The notes under the pieces: model-generated
The model's input: the letters and a program-made list of their open reading frames with translations, nothing else
The model's database searches: none
Told to the model about the DNA's origin: nothing
Source of the DNA: a virus
Taxonomy: Duplodnaviria; Heunggongvirae; Uroviricota; Caudoviricetes
Length of the DNA stretch: 37,859 nt
Virus record (IMG/VR): IMGVR_UViG_3300026484_000284
Location: 64,001 to 101,859 of that record
Strand: one strand, 5' to 3'
Made by a program: the position numbers and the translations under genes
Shown: piece by piece, positions 23,803 to 33,811 of the stretch
Layout of the letters: every line of letters begins with the position of its first letter
Position numbering within the stretch: the stretch's first letter is position 1

Positions 23803-25059
23803 TTATTCAAAATCTCCAAAATCAAAATCCCCACTCGATTCTTCAAACTTCAAATCACCTGCTGAGTCTTCAGGTACCCCAAAACTCGCATTTAATTGAC
23901 TTGTCAAATCCGGTAAATTATTGTTATCTACCTCATTAACTTTTTGATTCATTTGTTTAATTCCTGCTTGCTCATCAACGATACCTTTAAAGGCCATCCT
24001 TGAAAAATCAACTTCTAATAAAACCTTTTCAAGTTTCCCCGTGTATCTATTTTTGTCTGCTTTTAATATAATTTGCTTTTGCTGTCTCAATTCTTCATTC
24101 GATAACATACTTGCGGCAAAATCTGCTGTAGCAATAACACCGATTGACTCTGAAATGTTCTCCATTCCTGCTTCCGTATTGTTATAAGAACTTCTATTCA
24201 TTTGCGAACTTGAAATTATTATAATATCGTTTTGTTTTGCAAACCCGTGCAATTCTTCTGCTATACTTTTAAAATATGTATAAGAACCTTGACTTAATTT
24301 TGCTCTCGTTGATTTCATTAGGTTAAGATAATCAACCACGATATAATCCAACTTGATATTATGCTCATTTTCAATCTCATCTTTTAGGAATTGTAAATCA
24401 AATACACTAAAACCTCCAGCAGGATATTCCTTTACAAAAAATTTACCTGTGTAATCTTTAACTTTATCATATTTTGCCTTATACACTTCCCAACTCATAT
24501 TGTCGAATTCGTGTAGTTGAGTGTAAAGTAGATTAGCATCAAATCTTTTTAGTATTTCTGCTTCTTCCATTTCAAGTGAAACATATAAACCATTTTTCTT
24601 CTGTAAAGACATACCTGCAGCAGTTGCTATTTTTAGTGCCGTGTTATGATGTAAAATTCCATTAGCATCATAATATAAATGTGGTGCATCTAATGATAAA
24701 CCATATAAAAACTCATCTGTATTTTCTTTTATATTTAAGTGTTTAATTTTAACTAATCCTTCAACTGTTTCTAAATAATCTCCAACTTTTAAATCTTTAG
24801 CATAAATAATGTTTCCATTTATTACGAACCTGTGATTTAATGAAACCACAACTTCAATTCCGTTTTCAAGTGTAACTTCAACCCAATCCTCAGGTGTTTT
24901 TTTAACTAATTGTCTAATAGGCACAATACCATCTGGAGATTCAATATAACACTCATATTTTAAATCTGAAAATATATCACACTCATAACTCTCTTCTAAA
25001 AATTCATTGAATTCAAATAATTCACTTATTTCCATTGTTATTTTTTTTAAATCACTCAT
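23803..25059 (-). CDS. gp41: Replicative helicase gp41, C-terminal half preceded by a 139-aa IntC
   Basis: ...GILHHN|TALK..YVSLEM..IVVDYLNLM..SSQMNR..ISESIG..KNRY DnaB-family motifs. Confidence 0.9.
   Translation of the reverse strand: MSDLKKITMEISELFEFNEFLEESYECDIFSDLKYECYIESPDGIVPIRQLVKKTPEDWVEVTLENGIEVVVSLNHRFVINGNIIYAKDLKVGDYLETVEGLVKIKHLNIKENTDEFLYGLSLDAPHLYYDANGILHHNTALKIATAAGMSLQKKNGLYVSLEMEEAEILKRFDANLLYTQLHEFDNMSWEVYKAKYDKVKDYTGKFFVKEYPAGGFSVFDLQFLKDEIENEHNIKLDYIVVDYLNLMKSTRAKLSQGSYTYFKSIAEELHGFAKQNDIIIISSSQMNRSSYNNTEAGMENISESIGVIATADFAASMLSNEELRQQKQIILKADKNRYTGKLEKVLLEVDFSRMAFKGIVDEQAGIKQMNQKVNEVDNNNLPDLTSQLNASFGVPEDSAGDLKFEESSGDFDFGDFE
24643..25059 (-). mobile_element. Split intein C-fragment of gp41 (139 aa)
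   Basis: SLNH block B, AKDLKVGD, LYGLSL block F, HHN/T block G. Confidence 0.9.
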
Positions 25060-25175
25060 TATTTTCTCCTTTAAGTGTCCCTATTATATTAAAATACTTT
25101 ATAAATTTAATGTTATGTTTTTCAATAGTTTTTTTGAATTTATAATTTTTTATTATAAACATCTTTATCCATTAA

Positions 25176-25206
25176 AAAAGAAATAGATTTCAGGTCTATT
25201 TCTTTT
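25176..25206 (-). terminator. Intrinsic terminator-like hairpin between the two gp41 halves
   Basis: 12-bp perfect stem AAAAGAAATAGA/TCTATTTCTTTT with a 7-nt loop; ends in a U run on the minus strand; stem is AU-rich. Confidence 0.6.
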
Positions 25207-25225
25207 ATGTATGTTATGCTTTTTT

Positions 25226-25933
25226 TTAAGAATTCAATTTTTTATTTCTTTTCCACTCTTCGAACTTTTTTCGTGTTTTTTCATCTACATATATATTCAA
25301 TTTTGTATCTTTTCTTAAACATTTACCTCCGTGCGATGGCGCCAAAAATAAATTTAATGTTTTACTTCTGAAACCACCACCTAATAAATCGTCAAGAACA
25401 TTTATTCCAGTTGAAATTTTTCTAAATTCTTCTTGATATTTTTTAAATCTATTTTCCAAGTCATTATGGAACTCTAAACCTAAATCCGTATCAAAATTAT
25501 AATTTAGTGCCTTTTCAAATTTTACGATTATATCATTTTCAATATCGTCTTTTTGTTTTAATTCATCGACACTTTCCAAGATAGCATCCATCAATGAAAT
25601 CTTTTTTAAGTGCCTTTGAGTGAATTGTATTAAAAAGTCAAAATTTTTTATATCTTGCTCATTTTTTAATTCTGTTTTAATGTAATTAAAAACATTCTGT
25701 TTTAAATTTTTGTCTAATCCACTTTCCATAACAAAAAGCGCCAATTCTTTAATTGACGGAGATTTCTCAAATTTTTTATGAAATTTTTCAATATATTGAT
25801 ATATCGTCTTAGTTTCAACTTTTTTAAAATTATTGCCTTCTAATTTTGAAAATACTCTGGCAAAATAAGCAGGATTCTTCATAAGGTGAAAAATTATAAT
25901 TTTTTCTCCATCGAGATTGTCTAATTCATTCAT
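25226..25933 (-). CDS. gp41: Replicative helicase gp41, N-terminal half followed by a 31-aa IntN
   Basis: FDTDLGLEF..RFKKY..ISTGINVLDDLLGGG..KTLNLFLAPSHGGK|CLRKDT. Confidence 0.9.
   Translation of the reverse strand: MNELDNLDGEKIIIFHLMKNPAYFARVFSKLEGNNFKKVETKTIYQYIEKFHKKFEKSPSIKELALFVMESGLDKNLKQNVFNYIKTELKNEQDIKNFDFLIQFTQRHLKKISLMDAILESVDELKQKDDIENDIIVKFEKALNYNFDTDLGLEFHNDLENRFKKYQEEFRKISTGINVLDDLLGGGFRSKTLNLFLAPSHGGKCLRKDTKLNIYVDEKTRKKFEEWKRNKKLNS
25229..25321 (-). mobile_element. Split intein N-fragment of gp41 (31 aa)
   Basis: Block A CLRKDTKLNIYVD directly after the Walker A lysine, then a stop. Confidence 0.85.
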
Positions 25934-25992: not shown

Positions 25993-26022
25993 ATTATAAT
26001 ATAATTGAAATTTAAAATTAAC
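25993..26022 (-). promoter_or_regulatory. Class II promoter GTTAATT-N17-TATAAT upstream of gp41-N
   Basis: -10 at 25998-25993, GTTAATT at 26022-26016. Confidence 0.65.
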
Positions 26023-26037
26023 CTTAAGGATTTTATA

Positions 26038-27060
26038 ATGTGTGTAATAATAGCAAAAAAAATAAAAAATATAAACGATGAGTTAGAATGGAACCTTTTT
26101 AAATTTAGGGACAGAGCATATGACCCAAAATATGTTCTTAAATCATTCATCTATAAAAATGTAGAAGTGTTATACCTTAAAGACAAAAAATCAGAATGGA
26201 TTGAAGGGATAAATTCTTTTGGAATAACACTTGTATCTGCTGCCCTTGATAATCATTCAGATGCTTCAATAGGTGGTGGAAGTAACACCTCACAACTTTT
26301 TAGAGATTACTTAAAAACTGCCAATGAAAGAAATAGTATCATCATAAAAAGGGTATTAAGACAAACATCTATTGAAGATGCTCTTGAAGTTCTTGTGGAT
26401 TCAAAATTTATTGGTAATACTTTCTTAACAGATGGTAAAAAACTTTTTAGTATTGAAATATCTATACCTCAAAAAAAATTATTAAATTACAGAAATTCTT
26501 CTGAAGATTTAGCAAATTTAAAATGGTCTGACTTCAAAGCAAAAATTATGAGCAATCTTGAAGAAACCGATTTTAAAGTTTCTGTTAAAGAAGCATCAAC
26601 TGAAAGATTACTTATTAAAACCAACCACTCTATACAAATGAAAAATTTAGGATATCGTCCAGAACATAAAGGTTATAAGTCAAGTGTTAAAAGAAGAGAA
26701 ATTGTTAAAAATTTTACGAAAAGCATTAAAACAGATTCTATTGAGAACATAATGTATCTTTTAACAAATCTTGACAACCCAAAACATTCAAAAAATCCTG
26801 AATTAAGACCACTAAGAACAAAAGAAAAAACTTCATTATCAAAAAAAGAAAAAGAAAAACAAAATATAACTGATTATTATACAACTGATATTTTTGGATT
26901 TTCACCTTCAAAAAGAACAATGTATTTATTACCTATTCATTCAAAAACAGAAAAAGGTAGTTTTGATAATAAAGAAACTCAATGCCATTTTATCACATTA
27001 AGTAGGAGTTTCCTTAAAGAAAACTTATGTGAAATTCTTTATACGGATATTAACGATTAA
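26038..27060 (+). CDS. N-terminal nucleophile (Ntn) hydrolase-like protein, 340 aa
   Basis: AAGGA RBS gives start MCVIIAK (Cys2); FRDR and WIEGINSFG resemble NRDE/C45-type motifs. Confidence 0.6.
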   Translation: MCVIIAKKIKNINDELEWNLFKFRDRAYDPKYVLKSFIYKNVEVLYLKDKKSEWIEGINSFGITLVSAALDNHSDASIGGGSNTSQLFRDYLKTANERNSIIIKRVLRQTSIEDALEVLVDSKFIGNTFLTDGKKLFSIEISIPQKKLLNYRNSSEDLANLKWSDFKAKIMSNLEETDFKVSVKEASTERLLIKTNHSIQMKNLGYRPEHKGYKSSVKRREIVKNFTKSIKTDSIENIMYLLTNLDNPKHSKNPELRPLRTKEKTSLSKKEKEKQNITDYYTTDIFGFSPSKRTMYLLPIHSKTEKGSFDNKETQCHFITLSRSFLKENLCEILYTDIND

Positions 27061-28316: not shown

Positions 28317-29468
28317 TCAATATACCGACATCAATTTTAATAAAAATGCCATTAAAGTAATTTCTTTGTTTTTAGCAATTTTATCCATTTCTTGATACCT
28401 TGCCAATTCCCCAACTATCCCAGGTTGTTTTTGTGCTGGTAAAAATTCGTCCATTTTTTTCCAAAACCAAGTGTAAAAATTTGAAGGGTTATTGAGTAAC
28501 ATAACCATTCCTCTTGTCGTACTATAATTTTTTTCTTTAACTTTTTCCATTAAGTCGGTAAAAATATCATCTACATCCAAATTTTGGAGTTTTAGTTTTC
28601 CATTGACTACATTATCTTGTAATGAAATTGTCATATTTCTCATAGAAGGATAGTGCTTTTTAACTATTTCACCTATATCCTTTTTATCGTACTCAACACC
28701 TTCAATTTCGCAAATATCTATAAGTCTTTTATACATTTTTTTGGCAATTTCGTTTTTATGTTCTTGAAAAATAATATCAAAATCAAAAACAATAAATCTA
28801 CTCAATAAAGGTTCTATGAATCTATCTTTATAGTTTCCTGTTAGAAAAAATCTAACATTACCAGCATATTGCTCAATCACTCCCCTTAAAATATCTTGTG
28901 CTCCTGCACTTCCTTGACTTGAAGTCGTTAGGTTATCTGCTTCGTCTAAAACCAATAGTTTTCTTTTACCTTGTGCTGACATAGTACTTGCAAAACTCAC
29001 GATTTCATTTCTAATGGTCGAAACCGAATTATCCTGAGAAGCATTTATCCATTTTACATCTGAATCTAACTCGTGAATTAAAGCATTTAACATACTTCCC
29101 TTACCTGTATTATGAGATGAAACTTCATTTAGGAAGTATTGGTGCTTTTCACTATCAACAGTTAAGTCATAAACCGGTTTCACTTCATTTGTTTCTTCAA
29201 TAAATAAAACCTCAATAATTCCTTTTTCACTTAAAATTTCTTGACCTATTTTTAAATCTTTTGAATAAACCCATCCGTTTTCAATTTCAAAAAGATGATT
29301 TTCGGCGACCTCCATAAAGTCAAGTTCTTCATTATATTCATAATATACTATAATAGTTTTCTCTTTTTTTGTTACGGATGCTATAACATTTTCAAATCCT
29401 GTATCTGTTTTAATTTTTAAAGTTGAATTATTGAAATAATAATCCAAATTTTTTACATCAATTAACAT
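28317..29468 (-). CDS. gp44: Clamp loader large subunit gp44, C-terminal part preceded by a 120-aa IntC
   Basis: VSSHN|TGKGS...INAS...LVLDEADNL...QDILRGVIE...TGNY...LLSRF RFC motifs. Confidence 0.92.
   Translation of the reverse strand: MLIDVKNLDYYFNNSTLKIKTDTGFENVIASVTKKEKTIIVYYEYNEELDFMEVAENHLFEIENGWVYSKDLKIGQEILSEKGIIEVLFIEETNEVKPVYDLTVDSEKHQYFLNEVSSHNTGKGSMLNALIHELDSDVKWINASQDNSVSTIRNEIVSFASTMSAQGKRKLLVLDEADNLTTSSQGSAGAQDILRGVIEQYAGNVRFFLTGNYKDRFIEPLLSRFIVFDFDIIFQEHKNEIAKKMYKRLIDICEIEGVEYDKKDIGEIVKKHYPSMRNMTISLQDNVVNGKLKLQNLDVDDIFTDLMEKVKEKNYSTTRGMVMLLNNPSNFYTWFWKKMDEFLPAQKQPGIVGELARYQEMDKIAKNKEITLMAFLLKLMSVY
29109..29468 (-). mobile_element. Split intein C-fragment of gp44 (120 aa)
   Basis: KIKTDTGF, AENH block B, VYDLTV block F, SHN/T block G; own AAGGAG RBS. 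Confidence 0.9.
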
Positions 29469-30187
29469 TTTATCTCCTTAATAAATTTTTCAAATTCTTG
29501 TGGTAACAAAATAATGGCACCAAATTTGAATTCTTTGTAAATCATTTTAGCATCATATTCATAATTACCTTTCAAACCAGCAATTTCTATATACATATTT
29601 TTTGAAGGAATATAAAAATCACATCGCATTCTTGAATTAGTATAATGTTTTTCCAATTCAAATTTTATATCATTTTCTTTCAATAAATCATAAAAATTTA
29701 TTTCATAACTACTTCTCAATAAACCTTCACTGACTTTTTTTGTATATCCATATCTTGATTTATGATTTTCAATGGGATTATATAAAACCCCAATCTTATT
29801 TTCAATATCACTTTTAAAAAATTTTATGGGCTTAATAAATTCTTTAGGCACCACGAAATTACAATAATTTTTATATTTTTCAACATAAAAATCAATATAA
29901 CTATTTTTTGAAGAATATTTTTTGAGAATTATATCATTTAATTGTTTGTTTTTTGAAATTGATTCTTTCGTATATTTTTTTAAATAACATTCACAATATT
30001 CTTCAAAATCCTTCGAATAAGTCCAATCCATTTTTATTCTATCAAAGTATTTTTGAATCGTGCTTCTGTTTTGTAATGATTCTTTCCATTTGTTTTGTCT
30101 TGACTTCCAAATCTGAAACGCCACACCAATAGGATATTTTTTAATTAGTTTTTCAAGTGAAAAGGTTGTTTGTCTTTCTTTCAACAT
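29462..30187 (-). CDS. Homing-endonuclease-like PD-(D/E)xK (Vsr/DUF559-type) protein between the gp44 halves; frame open upstream to 30268
   Basis: LRSSYE...RCDFYIP...YIEIAG; location inside a fractured gene. Confidence 0.7.
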   Translation of the reverse strand: MLKERQTTFSLEKLIKKYPIGVAFQIWKSRQNKWKESLQNRSTIQKYFDRIKMDWTYSKDFEEYCECYLKKYTKESISKNKQLNDIILKKYSSKNSYIDFYVEKYKNYCNFVVPKEFIKPIKFFKSDIENKIGVLYNPIENHKSRYGYTKKVSEGLLRSSYEINFYDLLKENDIKFELEKHYTNSRMRCDFYIPSKNMYIEIAGLKGNYEYDAKMIYKEFKFGAIILLPQEFEKFIKEIKC

Positions 30188-30263
30188 TTTTTTAGCAGTT
30201 CCCTCATCATATCCTTTTTCTAAATAGTATTCAATTCTTGTCGTAAAAGTTTTTTTATATTTT

Positions 30264-30279
30264 TCAGGGGTGTTCCTTT
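30264..30279 (-). other. Candidate +1 ribosomal frameshift cassette AAAGGAA-CAC-CCC-TGA
   Basis: The +1 frame continues PEKYKKTFTTRIEYYLEKGYDEGTAKK without a stop into the endonuclease ORF. Confidence 0.5.
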
Positions 30280-30998
30280 ACTAACTTTGATTTGATTTTC
30301 CCGTTTTTTGATTGTATCATAAATACTTGTTTTTGTGCTTCTTCAATACTAAATCCTCTATTAACCCAAAATGAAACGGTTGAAGGTTGCTGCTTTTCAA
30401 AAAAATCCATCTCTTTATTGTCAATAATCGCTTTTCTAAGTTTTAATAAAGTAACTTTTCCGTCTATATTTTGTTTAAAATTCAAATCTTTAAAATCATT
30501 CTCAAAGTATTTTTTTCTTCTTCTAATTCTTTTAGTTGTCTCGACTGCTTCTTCAAAAGTTTTAAAATTTAACCAATAAATGAATTTAGGATATTTACTT
30601 TTGAATTTCTTATCTTCTTTAATTAAATTTATTATACGACTTTTATTTTTATCCCAATTTTCTGAAATTTTTTTATATGCTATTTCATTTACTTCAAAAG
30701 TATCTTTTGAAACTTCATAGGTTAAGTTTTCAAATAATGTTTTTGATTTTAACAACGGGAATTTCTTCAATAATTCTTTTTTATGTAAAGAATCAACTCT
30801 AACTTCCACATTATTACCTTCAACACTACACCCTGGAGTGCTACTTACAAACATAATATTCGGAATATTACTTTTATCTATATACTCTTGAAATTTTTCC
30901 ATAAGATAATCTGGTAAAACCACATCCTTTAATCTTTGGGGGCGATATTTCTCAACCCATAAGTCGTTAAACTTTTCATTATACACTAAATCTGGCAT
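30264..30998 (-). CDS. gp44: Clamp loader gp44 N-terminal 56 aa, IntN, and endonuclease-associated tail
   Basis: LWVEKYRPQRLKDVVLP RFC box; SSTPG|CSVEGN intein start in Walker A. Confidence 0.9.
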   Translation of the reverse strand: MPDLVYNEKFNDLWVEKYRPQRLKDVVLPDYLMEKFQEYIDKSNIPNIMFVSSTPGCSVEGNNVEVRVDSLHKKELLKKFPLLKSKTLFENLTYEVSKDTFEVNEIAYKKISENWDKNKSRIINLIKEDKKFKSKYPKFIYWLNFKTFEEAVETTKRIRRRKKYFENDFKDLNFKQNIDGKVTLLKLRKAIIDNKEMDFFEKQQPSTVSFWVNRGFSIEEAQKQVFMIQSKNGKIKSKLVKEHP

Positions 30999-31050: not shown

Positions 31051-31079
31051 ATTATACCATAAATAAAAACAAAAGTCAA
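31051..31079 (-). promoter_or_regulatory. Class I promoter TTGACT-N17-TATAAT with extended -10 (TGnTATAAT)
   Basis: -35 at 31079-31074, -10 at 31056-31051. Confidence 0.85.
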
Positions 31080-32125: not shown

Positions 32126-33811
32126 CTAATTTTTTACGATTTTACTATAACCCTTATTTTCAATTGTATAAATCTTATTGAAAATATCTTTATTTTTTAT
32201 ATCTTTATTATGGGTTATAAGAATTATCTCTTTTTCTATAAAATTTTTATGCAATAATTCCAGAATTTCATCAACACCATCCTCATCTAAACTGCCATTT
32301 ATGAACTCATCTAAAAATAATATATTAAATGAAATTTTACTTTTTATTTCACTCAATTTCAAAAAAGCAAATAAAATAGCAATTATAACTCTCATTTTTT
32401 GTCCATTACTTAATGAGTTGAAACTATAATCTTTATTCCTATATATGATTCTTTCTTTGAAAAATTTATCTAAAATAAAATTATAAGACATTCCTAATTT
32501 TTCTAAATATAAATTTATGTGATAATTCAAAATTGGTATCTGCTCATCTATCAACTCACCTTTAAGGTTATCTTCACTTAACAAGATTTCAAGTTCTTTT
32601 AGGTCATTTATTTTTTGTGATAAATCGATATATTCATCTTTAAATTTTTTTAACGATTCTTTTTTCTCATCGATTAGTAAAGTATTTACCTCAATTTCTT
32701 TAAGATTTTTTATTTCATTTATTTTATTTTTTAAATCTATTATCTTTTTTTCTGCTTCAATTTGTTTAAATTGTTCCATTTTCAACTCAGAAATTTTATG
32801 TTTTTCAACATCAATATCTCTTAAAATGATTTCAAGATTTTTTTCAAAAGAAGATATATCCTCTTTTATCTTTTTAGCAGTTTCAACTTCATTTTTATAA
32901 TCAAAATCAAATTTTGCCATTATTTCGTTACCACATTTCTCGCAGATTATTTTTTCATTTTCTGCTTTTTTAAATGCCTTTATATTTATGATATGCTTTT
33001 GTATATTGTTTTTAAAACTTTTTAGTTGATTTTCAATCATACTTTTTCTAGATAGTAATTTTTCAAGTGTAGTATTATCAATTTCTATCTTTTTTTCTAG
33101 CAATTTTTCAAGTGTTTTAATTTCATTTTCATAATTAGAGATTAGTTCTTGTTTTTTATCAATTATTTCTTGCTTTTGTTTTTTTGCTTTATTATATTCA
33201 TTTTGTAAAGTTATAATATCACTTTTTAAAGTAGAAGTTTTAAACTCATTTTCTTTCATCAAGTCCTGAATATGTTTTTTATAGTTTTTAACTTTTTCTT
33301 TAATCTCGTTAAAAATAGAAGTATCTAAAAGTATTTGAAAAACTTGTTCTTTTTCTTTGGGGGATAATTCCATAAAATTTTTGCTATTAGTAACATTCGC
33401 TCCCAGATATAATAATTGCCCAAAAATCAATTCATTAAACCCAATCATTTCTTCGAATTTCTTCTGGTAATCTTTAGACTTAGCATCCAAGTCTAAAATT
33501 TTACCATTTACATATATTTCAAAAATGTTAGGTTTCATTCCTCTTTTAATAAAATATAAATCATCATTTATCATAAATTCAAGGGTAACTAATAATTTTT
33601 TACCTGCTGTGTCATTTATCATTTCTGCTAATTTAACTTTATTGAGTGATTTACCAAATAAAGCAAAGTATATTGCTGTCCCAATGGTTGATTTTCCTTG
33701 CCCATTTTTGCCTGACAATAAAGTCAATCCTGTCTCAGAAAATTCAATTGATTGTTCTTTTGAGTAAGACATAAAATTTTGTAGTGTCAATTTTTTGAAA
33801 TGAATTTTCAT
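32126..33811 (-). CDS. gp46: Recombination nuclease ATPase subunit (gp46, SbcC/Rad50-like)
   Basis: GKNGQGKST, coiled coil with CEKC zinc hook, LSNGQK signature, LFLDE, IILITH. Confidence 0.95.
   Translation of the reverse strand: MKIHFKKLTLQNFMSYSKEQSIEFSETGLTLLSGKNGQGKSTIGTAIYFALFGKSLNKVKLAEMINDTAGKKLLVTLEFMINDDLYFIKRGMKPNIFEIYVNGKILDLDAKSKDYQKKFEEMIGFNELIFGQLLYLGANVTNSKNFMELSPKEKEQVFQILLDTSIFNEIKEKVKNYKKHIQDLMKENEFKTSTLKSDIITLQNEYNKAKKQKQEIIDKKQELISNYENEIKTLEKLLEKKIEIDNTTLEKLLSRKSMIENQLKSFKNNIQKHIINIKAFKKAENEKIICEKCGNEIMAKFDFDYKNEVETAKKIKEDISSFEKNLEIILRDIDVEKHKISELKMEQFKQIEAEKKIIDLKNKINEIKNLKEIEVNTLLIDEKKESLKKFKDEYIDLSQKINDLKELEILLSEDNLKGELIDEQIPILNYHINLYLEKLGMSYNFILDKFFKERIIYRNKDYSFNSLSNGQKMRVIIAILFAFLKLSEIKSKISFNILFLDEFINGSLDEDGVDEILELLHKNFIEKEIILITHNKDIKNKDIFNKIYTIENKGYSKIVKN

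Follow-up and report, generated by a model that had tools for sequence, protein, structure and literature searches.

A CCC-TGA stop inside the endonuclease of a split gp44 intein: a probable recent one-base insertion with a small frameshift leak

The DNA analysed here (the window) is a stretch of 37,859 nucleotides, positions 64,001 to 101,859 of the Caudoviricetes record IMGVR_UViG_3300026484_000284, and on its minus strand the phage clamp-loader gene gp44 is interrupted, within the Walker A loop, by a mobile intein of the atypically split kind. The reading frame that would join the N-intein (IntN) to a homing endonuclease is interrupted by a CCC-TGA stop, a site that a first-pass annotation had taken for a programmed frameshift cassette of the prfB (RF2) kind. 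Our results point instead to the recent insertion of a single C, at the start of nuclease decay, as the probable origin of this stop, with an incidental leak of up to ~2% into the nuclease frame. Three other readings are weighed below, and the weights given to all four are judgements that were not computed.

Organization of the gp44 locus

The features of the locus are the following.

31051..31079, minus strand: sigma70-type promoter-like site, TTGACT-17-TATAAT, 5' of gp44N; 11 of 12 consensus positions match
30831..30998, minus strand: gp44 clamp-loader N-extein, 56 aa, stopping within the Walker A loop (STPG/C)
30789..30830, minus strand: short IntN core from Cys1, ~14 aa; the boundary is approximate and presumed
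30267..30788, minus strand: N-terminal part of the endonuclease, in frame with IntN, with the first FWxxRG repeat (alignment A3)
30274..30279, minus strand: SD-like AAAGGA, largely formed by the Lys-Glu codons AAG GAA, ending 4 nt before CCC
30264..30270, minus strand: 4-C run and CCC-TGA shifty stop, the putative one-base insertion site, with CCC to CCU re-pairing in +1
29462..30268, minus strand: +1 frame, 268 codons, with PEKY motif, second repeat, QxTFSL module, linker and nuclease
29465..29764, minus strand: nuclease domain of PD-(D/E)xK / Vsr-like type that retains the conserved RSxxE, DF and E
29109..29468, minus strand: IntC, 120 aa, ending in SHN, with its own AAGGAG RBS and a 7-nt overlap with the nuclease stop
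28317..29108, minus strand: gp44 C-extein from Thr+1 (TGK)

An intein-free allele, P0003, reads an uninterrupted STPG-TGK across the insertion point, and Cys1 (Cys57) and the Gly that follows it are invariant across 14-19 relatives. The downstream ORF (29468..28317) consists of IntC and the gp44 C-extein joined at SHN/T, and its start overlaps the end of the nuclease frame at 29462. IntC matched PT-HINT (E 2e-6) and VidaL (E 1.8e-5), the closest atypically split intein, and the features of such inteins are present: Cys57, AENH with the block B His, VYDL as block F, and a terminal His-Asn followed by Thr. Because gp44 is essential and its Walker A loop is restored only through splicing, we infer that the two halves splice in trans, and homing of the element is likewise presumed. 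The promoter-like site would drive the IntN-nuclease ORF.

The same phage has two further short-IntN split inteins, in gp41 and PolB (window 23803-25933; genome C1 11599-15836). The halves in gp41 are separated by a 166-nt gap without a gene and those in PolB by two ordinary-looking ORFs, the second with its own GAAGGAG RBS; reading by eye found no recognisable nuclease gene between the halves of either. One of the very few long plus-strand ORFs (window 26005-27060, 351 aa from TTG) lies amid the replication genes, as it also does in the related contigs L006 and L014-L017.

The interrupted junction

The upstream ORF (30998..30264, 244 codons) ends in GTA AAG GAA CAC CCC TGA. The +1 frame opens at CCT (30268..30266) and runs for 27 codons to ATG 30187 and for 268 to the TAA at 29462, and deletion of one C gives a stop-free gp44N-IntN-nuclease of 511 aa. 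Since a TAA at 30280 closes the +1 frame on the 5' side, a shift is possible only within the last four codons, where CCC can re-pair as CCU with UGA in the A site (TGA 30266..30264). Copies of a repeat, itself a motif across the family, lie on either side of the junction (30371..30312 and 30229..30170). AAAGGA is the RBS of this phage, with AGGA ending 5-8 nt 5' of 78 of the 81 ATG starts that have one. In all these respects the description in the first-pass annotation (ORF end, open +1 frame, ~511-aa fusion, repeat across the junction, RBS consensus and proline re-pairing) was reproduced on the minus strand.

Other routes past the stop were rejected. Readthrough would meet a closed frame 0 two codons past the TGA, which is an ordinary stop here (24/107). 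For transcriptional slippage, the upstream A6 and T7 runs precede the +1-frame TAA at 30280 and the A7 run lies past the stop. Phase variation requires a longer run than C4. RNA structure prediction and Rfam gave no structure and no match near the site, and the 102-kb contig contains no phage tRNA-Pro.

Sequencing error, which had been offered as an alternative, is largely excluded by two further assemblies with four C. The run recurs in a Logan contig (L013), which matches the window at 100% over 3373 nt. It is also present in L007/L012, an ENA megahit contig with 6 SNPs relative to the window, all in gp46. The agreement of the JGI, Logan and ENA megahit assemblies makes a consensus error unlikely, though all three possibly derive from one sample or the same reads. 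A consensus indel at a C3 run is unusual in short-read data, and a search for a near-identical 511-aa protein found none. The least credible of the four readings is that the phage really has a continuous ORF of 511 codons, the fourth C being an error of sequencing or assembly or else a variant present in a minority. The 6 SNPs (window 32584-32630, L007:1369-1415) are packed into 47 nt and look like a recombined patch or an assembly bubble.

The junction in relatives

A profile search with the IntN tail retrieved 65 proteins, a family in which a short IntN and its tail occur in gp44, PhoH and Dda, with differing nuclease domains at the end. In at least 11 members, from gp44 and PhoH, the fusion is full-length and in frame (P0028, P0031, P0032, P0034, P0035, P0047, P0050, P0052, P0057, P0067, P0095), and the fused layout is visible in the DNA of L027-L030. 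The IntN-nuclease architecture is evident from these reading frames, which confirm in-frame fusion as the normal form in relatives. Where the window has its stop, L005 reads AAA GAG AAC CCT GAA (K-E-N-P-E-K-Y), L018 reads AAA AAG AAC CCC GAG (K-K-N-P-E-K-Y) and L027 reads AAA GAA AGT CCA GAA (K-E-S-P-E-K-Y), all in frame and with neither a stop nor AAGGA at the corresponding position. L028 is also in frame, which makes four of four relatives checked in DNA without the cassette, and 12 proteins of the family have a P-[ED]-[KL]-Y motif in frame. The proposal that both parts were once a single ORF is therefore borne out. Conservation of SD-NNN-CCC-TGA is not: the cassette was absent from every relative examined, of which the closest intein-bearing allele (L005) has only 39% protein identity in the tail and 72% just past the junction. 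Since any CCT GAA contains an out-of-frame TGA and K-E is a shared feature ahead of x-P, the apparent cassette is what a single added C would produce in conserved coding sequence.

Scans of viral and metagenome contigs for the junction pattern were empty, with no close intein-bearing allele found, and the locus scans run with A2, P0002, P0039 and P0051 were likewise without a hit; neither result is evidence of absence. Among cultured phages there was no DNA-level match to the locus and none for the IntN tail.

The best model of the ancestral gene is that of L018 which, with TAG translated as Gln, encodes a gp44N-IntN-nuclease of 527 aa, colinear with the rebuilt 511 aa and 33% identical over residues 11-508. 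Its frame (L018:3304-4887) contains 8 in-frame TAG codons, several of them where relatives have Gln or Glu, and the gene caller had stopped at 259 aa; this pattern indicates a phage that reads TAG as Gln. P0026, which had been considered an independent truncation, proved to be such a TAG=Gln recoded full-length fusion.

Close relatives (L006, L014-L017) carry an intein-free gp44 allele at ~88% nucleotide identity, and the fourfold-site difference between the window and L015 is ~40%. The best-scoring cultured matches to gp44 among those listed are Campylobacter phages, at 38%, and a Campylobacterota host is only a guess from these sequences.

Several members (P0027, P0028, P0031, P0032, P0034, P0035, P0046, P0050, P0052, P0067) share a tail of ~180 aa and end in different nuclease domains, by motif PD-(D/E)xK-like, GIY-YIG-like or HNH-like, which suggests domain swapping. 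Among them, P0046, from Dda, is a contiguous intein that keeps a remnant of a nuclease. In another gene, gp46 (Rad50-like), the Walker A motif is fractured with a free-standing nuclease of the same repeat family between the parts (L001:3459-7265, L009:270-4087, L011:80-3867), and in L001 and L009 the fracture is made by a short IntN.

Nuclease loss and the state of the nuclease

Loss of the nuclease is recurrent in the family. In L019 (Dda) the nuclease is gone, the IntN ORF ending 186 aa after Cys1 with IntC 9 nt on, and in L023 (gp44) the corresponding values are 181 aa and 3 nt. In L005:6001-7005 the same gp44 intein lacks ~175 aa of the nuclease, RSxxE helix included, through an in-frame deletion bounded by two similar EK motifs; this could be a microhomology deletion or an assembly artefact. 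From protein alone, P0039 and P0045 end 194 and 197 aa after Cys1, and P0040, P0044 and P0051 are also truncated. The IntN ORF of the window ends 188 aa after Cys1, so that the nuclease-less alleles P0027, P0058, P0039, P0045 and window 30264-30830 all end at 181-197 aa. That several lineages end IntN at the same place, just past the first repeat, suggests that truncation there is tolerated or favoured, and the retained tail may have a role in IntN folding or splicing. The tail (region 30267..30788) also begins free-standing nucleases such as P0037 and P0041, so the break is located within the nuclease and not at its border with the intein.

Beyond the break, the +1 frame has no further damage. 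Its C-terminal 100 aa were predicted to fold confidently (block pLDDT 75-93 from about residue 180), with I-Bth0305I (3r3p) as the top Foldseek match (E 0.05, probability 0.98; VIA Z 6.6, rmsd 3.3, 80 aligned) and TnsA (Z 7.3) and Vsr (Z 6.8) as further matches, all of them middling at Z under 8. The RSxxE, DF and E residues are conserved and present. Compared with the EDxHD motif at the level of alignment A5, the acidic residues are conserved and no conserved His is evident (YIEIAG). The nuclease is 42-47% identical to that of P0095 and the upstream tail 30%. As 8% of substitutions would create a stop in this frame and none is present, a neutral break would be younger than ~5% divergence (P of no stop 0.04).

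Origin of the stop

We consider a recent one-C insertion the most probable explanation of these observations. Normally, the homing nuclease is fused in frame behind the short IntN, and trans-splicing of the N-precursor with IntC-gp44C would release an IntN-nuclease. One C added to the C3 run of CAC-CCT would have brought the hidden stop of the Pro-Glu codons into frame and left a 244-aa splicing partner without a nuclease domain, a first step of the loss seen repeatedly in relatives. Most ribosomes would then stop at the UGA, and the 244-aa precursor would still yield gp44 by trans-splicing with IntC-gp44C. A few would slip from CCC to CCU and make the exact 511-aa fusion, at a level of ~2% at most, or possibly slightly higher given the AAAGGA upstream, and this leak would be a by-product rather than selected control. 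The in-frame relatives, the fusions and the recurrent nuclease loss support the insertion, as does the lack of a recognisable nuclease gene between the halves of the gp41 and PolB inteins. Against it, the undamaged nuclease frame means that a neutral break must be young; the mutation hit a short C run where the region also has 14 A/T runs of 6-7 nt; and AAG GAA is uncommon, encoding 25 of the 325 Lys-Glu pairs in the genome. The intein-free targets in close relatives mean that homing could still pay, which argues against pure decay.

A small amount of fusion is likely to be made whatever the origin of the site, since CCC-UGA is shift-prone. [quoted passage not shown] The claim of low-level fusion by frameshifting therefore stands in part, and what lacks support is an evolved RF2-like cassette behind it: the UGA and the SD-like stretch follow from conserved amino acids, and a recent inactivating mutation, the other alternative first raised for this site, fits better.

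The rival that we take most seriously, though we judge it unlikely, is a selected, programmed +1 frameshift, in which an SD duplex and a slow UGA would push the tRNA-Pro from CCC to CCU and give a minority 511-aa fusion. The element would then stay mobile, while most ribosomes would yield a splicing partner devoid of the nuclease, expressed from a strong promoter, for which the sigma70-type site is a candidate. It stays in contention since neither the nuclease frame nor its catalytic residues are damaged and close relatives have intein-free alleles that could serve as targets. Moreover, the shift restores the ancestral protein exactly, the nuclease is better conserved relative to P0095 than the part upstream of it, AAAGGA is rare inside genes, and T4-type homing nucleases are routinely restrained at the level of translation (PMC2988022). 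On the other side, the cassette occurs in no relative checked, a single haplotype is known, no stimulatory RNA structure was predicted and there is no feedback loop of the RF2 kind. The need for rationing a toxic nuclease, the role proposed for such a shift, does not appear general, since many relatives in other lineages tolerate a full in-frame fusion.

The SD-like element itself is weaker than had been proposed. Since the final A of AAGGAA is left unpaired by the anti-SD, the duplex covers AAAGGA and stops 4 nt short of CCC, and the P codon, counted in the anti-SD register, lies 1 nt closer than at prfB; the statement that the spacing equals that of prfB was wrong. The duplex energy is -5.6 kcal/mol with an E. 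coli tail and -6.4 kcal/mol with a Campylobacter-type tail, about half the strength of the prfB-type site quoted in the first-pass annotation (AGGGGG UAU CUU UGA; -10.8 to -12.7 kcal/mol). Because starts in this phage lie 5-8 nt after AGGA, moving by +1 would lengthen the spacing from 4 to 5 nt and relax the duplex, and some SD stimulation of the shift is plausible. An SD-like duplex equally strong in the same upstream window is found at 3.9% of internal codons.

How easily such a site arises was estimated by an exhaustive simulation of single-base duplications, 683 in total, across codons 85-470 of the 3-C allele. Depending on run-length weighting, 5-14% gave a re-pairable codon before the first stop together with exact protein restoration, and 1-11% also had an SD-like duplex of -4 kcal/mol or better. 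A duplication in the T7 run at 30405, in the same ORF, gave a mimic as good as the real site, which supports the insertion, whereas under a stricter 4-mer definition of the SD only the real site remained (0.35% or less). Since the null ranges from ~0.01% to 11% by definition and the criteria were picked after the site was seen, the cassette-like look is moderate, not strong, evidence, only modestly above chance.

A further reading is that the insertion re-freed the nuclease as a 241-aa protein that begins at ATG 30187, either through initiation there or through translational coupling with a short ORF upstream, as in a classic fractured gene. The ORF from this ATG contains the whole catalytic domain, and homologous free-standing nucleases lie between the gp46 IntN and IntC in L001, L009 and L011. 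However, nothing pairs with the anti-SD at normal spacing before ATG 30187, the sole SD-like stretch (GAGGGA) ending 12 nt before it, outside the 5-8 nt of this phage; the Met is not conserved, the product would be without the N-terminal domain and both repeats, and no hairpin is predicted. We therefore hold this reading to be very improbable. A second internal AAAGGA, formed by E-K-G codons, precedes a 9-codon ORF in another frame (window 30183-30212, minus strand) whose TGA overlaps the ATG 30187 region, and this ORF could allow weak coupled re-initiation.

Significance and comparison with known systems

If the decay reading holds, the window captures an intein-borne nuclease cleanly at the first step of its decay, in a little-described family of short-IntN split inteins with a nuclease riding on IntN (gp44, PhoH, Dda). 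It also carries a caution, that RF2-like cassettes are easily mimicked in AT-rich genes. Should the SD-CCC-UGA site instead be under selection and ration the fused homing nuclease of a split intein, which we think doubtful, frameshifting would join hairpins and late promoters as a phage restraint on homing nucleases, and a recoding site born from one mutation would have turned an obligate IntN-nuclease fusion into a low-dose one. Our literature search turned up no account of a homing endonuclease with programmed frameshifting, and this would be the first case of ribosomal frameshifting controlling one.

The site resembles that of prfB in its upstream SD-like sequence, its P-site codon that re-pairs in +1 and the UGA in the A site. 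It differs in having CCC and not CUU, in an SD that is one base closer in register, its paired part ending 4 nt before the shift codon where the prfB type has 3 nt in the AGGAGG register, and in the base after the stop, UGAA in place of UGAC, which is a weak stop context. The prfB site is conserved, unlike this one, for which L005, L018, L027 and L028 are in frame, and the product here is an intein-nuclease and not a release factor that feeds back on termination by autoregulation. In register, conservation and feedback, then, this is not a site of the prfB type.

The closer likeness is to phage CCC-stop sites, in which frameshifting makes structural proteins. As in those, CCC is followed by a stop with an open +1 frame, and with an identical core signal it should work alike at the ribosome. 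CCC-UGA or CCC-UAA shifts of this kind are used by a Listeria phage tail gene, SPP1 and Q54, and occur in E. coli pheL and 18 other genes; pheL illustrates that such shifting can be incidental, even when it is as high as 15% (PMC3082878). In the phage cases the shift is used for gene expression, whereas here, judging from sequence, it is the long product that represents the ancestral protein, the short one being truncated.

In its layout, the element resembles the fractured genes of Dassa et al. 2009 (PMC2677866): a conserved enzyme is split by IntN and IntC into two ORFs on one strand (host-N-IntN, nuclease, IntC-host-C), with a Vsr-like/PD-(D/E)xK-type nuclease between the halves whose stop overlaps the IntC start. 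In those genes the nuclease stands alone, has its own start preceded by a 27-51 nt spacer, and usually follows a hairpin and a late promoter, whereas here it is fused to IntN across the family, with no normally spaced SD and no hairpin. Dassa et al. 2009 did not list gp44 among the hosts or mention frameshifts (PMC2677866). By its gene order the element is a fractured-gene variant in which the nuclease is joined to IntN, an arrangement near the in-frame steps in their model. Among split inteins, VidaL (PDB 6vgv) and Cat (6dsl) share the short IntN and the long IntC with blocks B, F and G, and differ in that IntN here bears a nuclease-derived tail of 175-450 aa and in the hosts, gp44, PhoH and Dda. 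The I-Bth0305I / Vsr / TnsA fold gave the best structural matches of the C-terminal domain; with Z under 8 and the histidine of EDxHD not evident, the nuclease probably works like these enzymes without being filed in that family.
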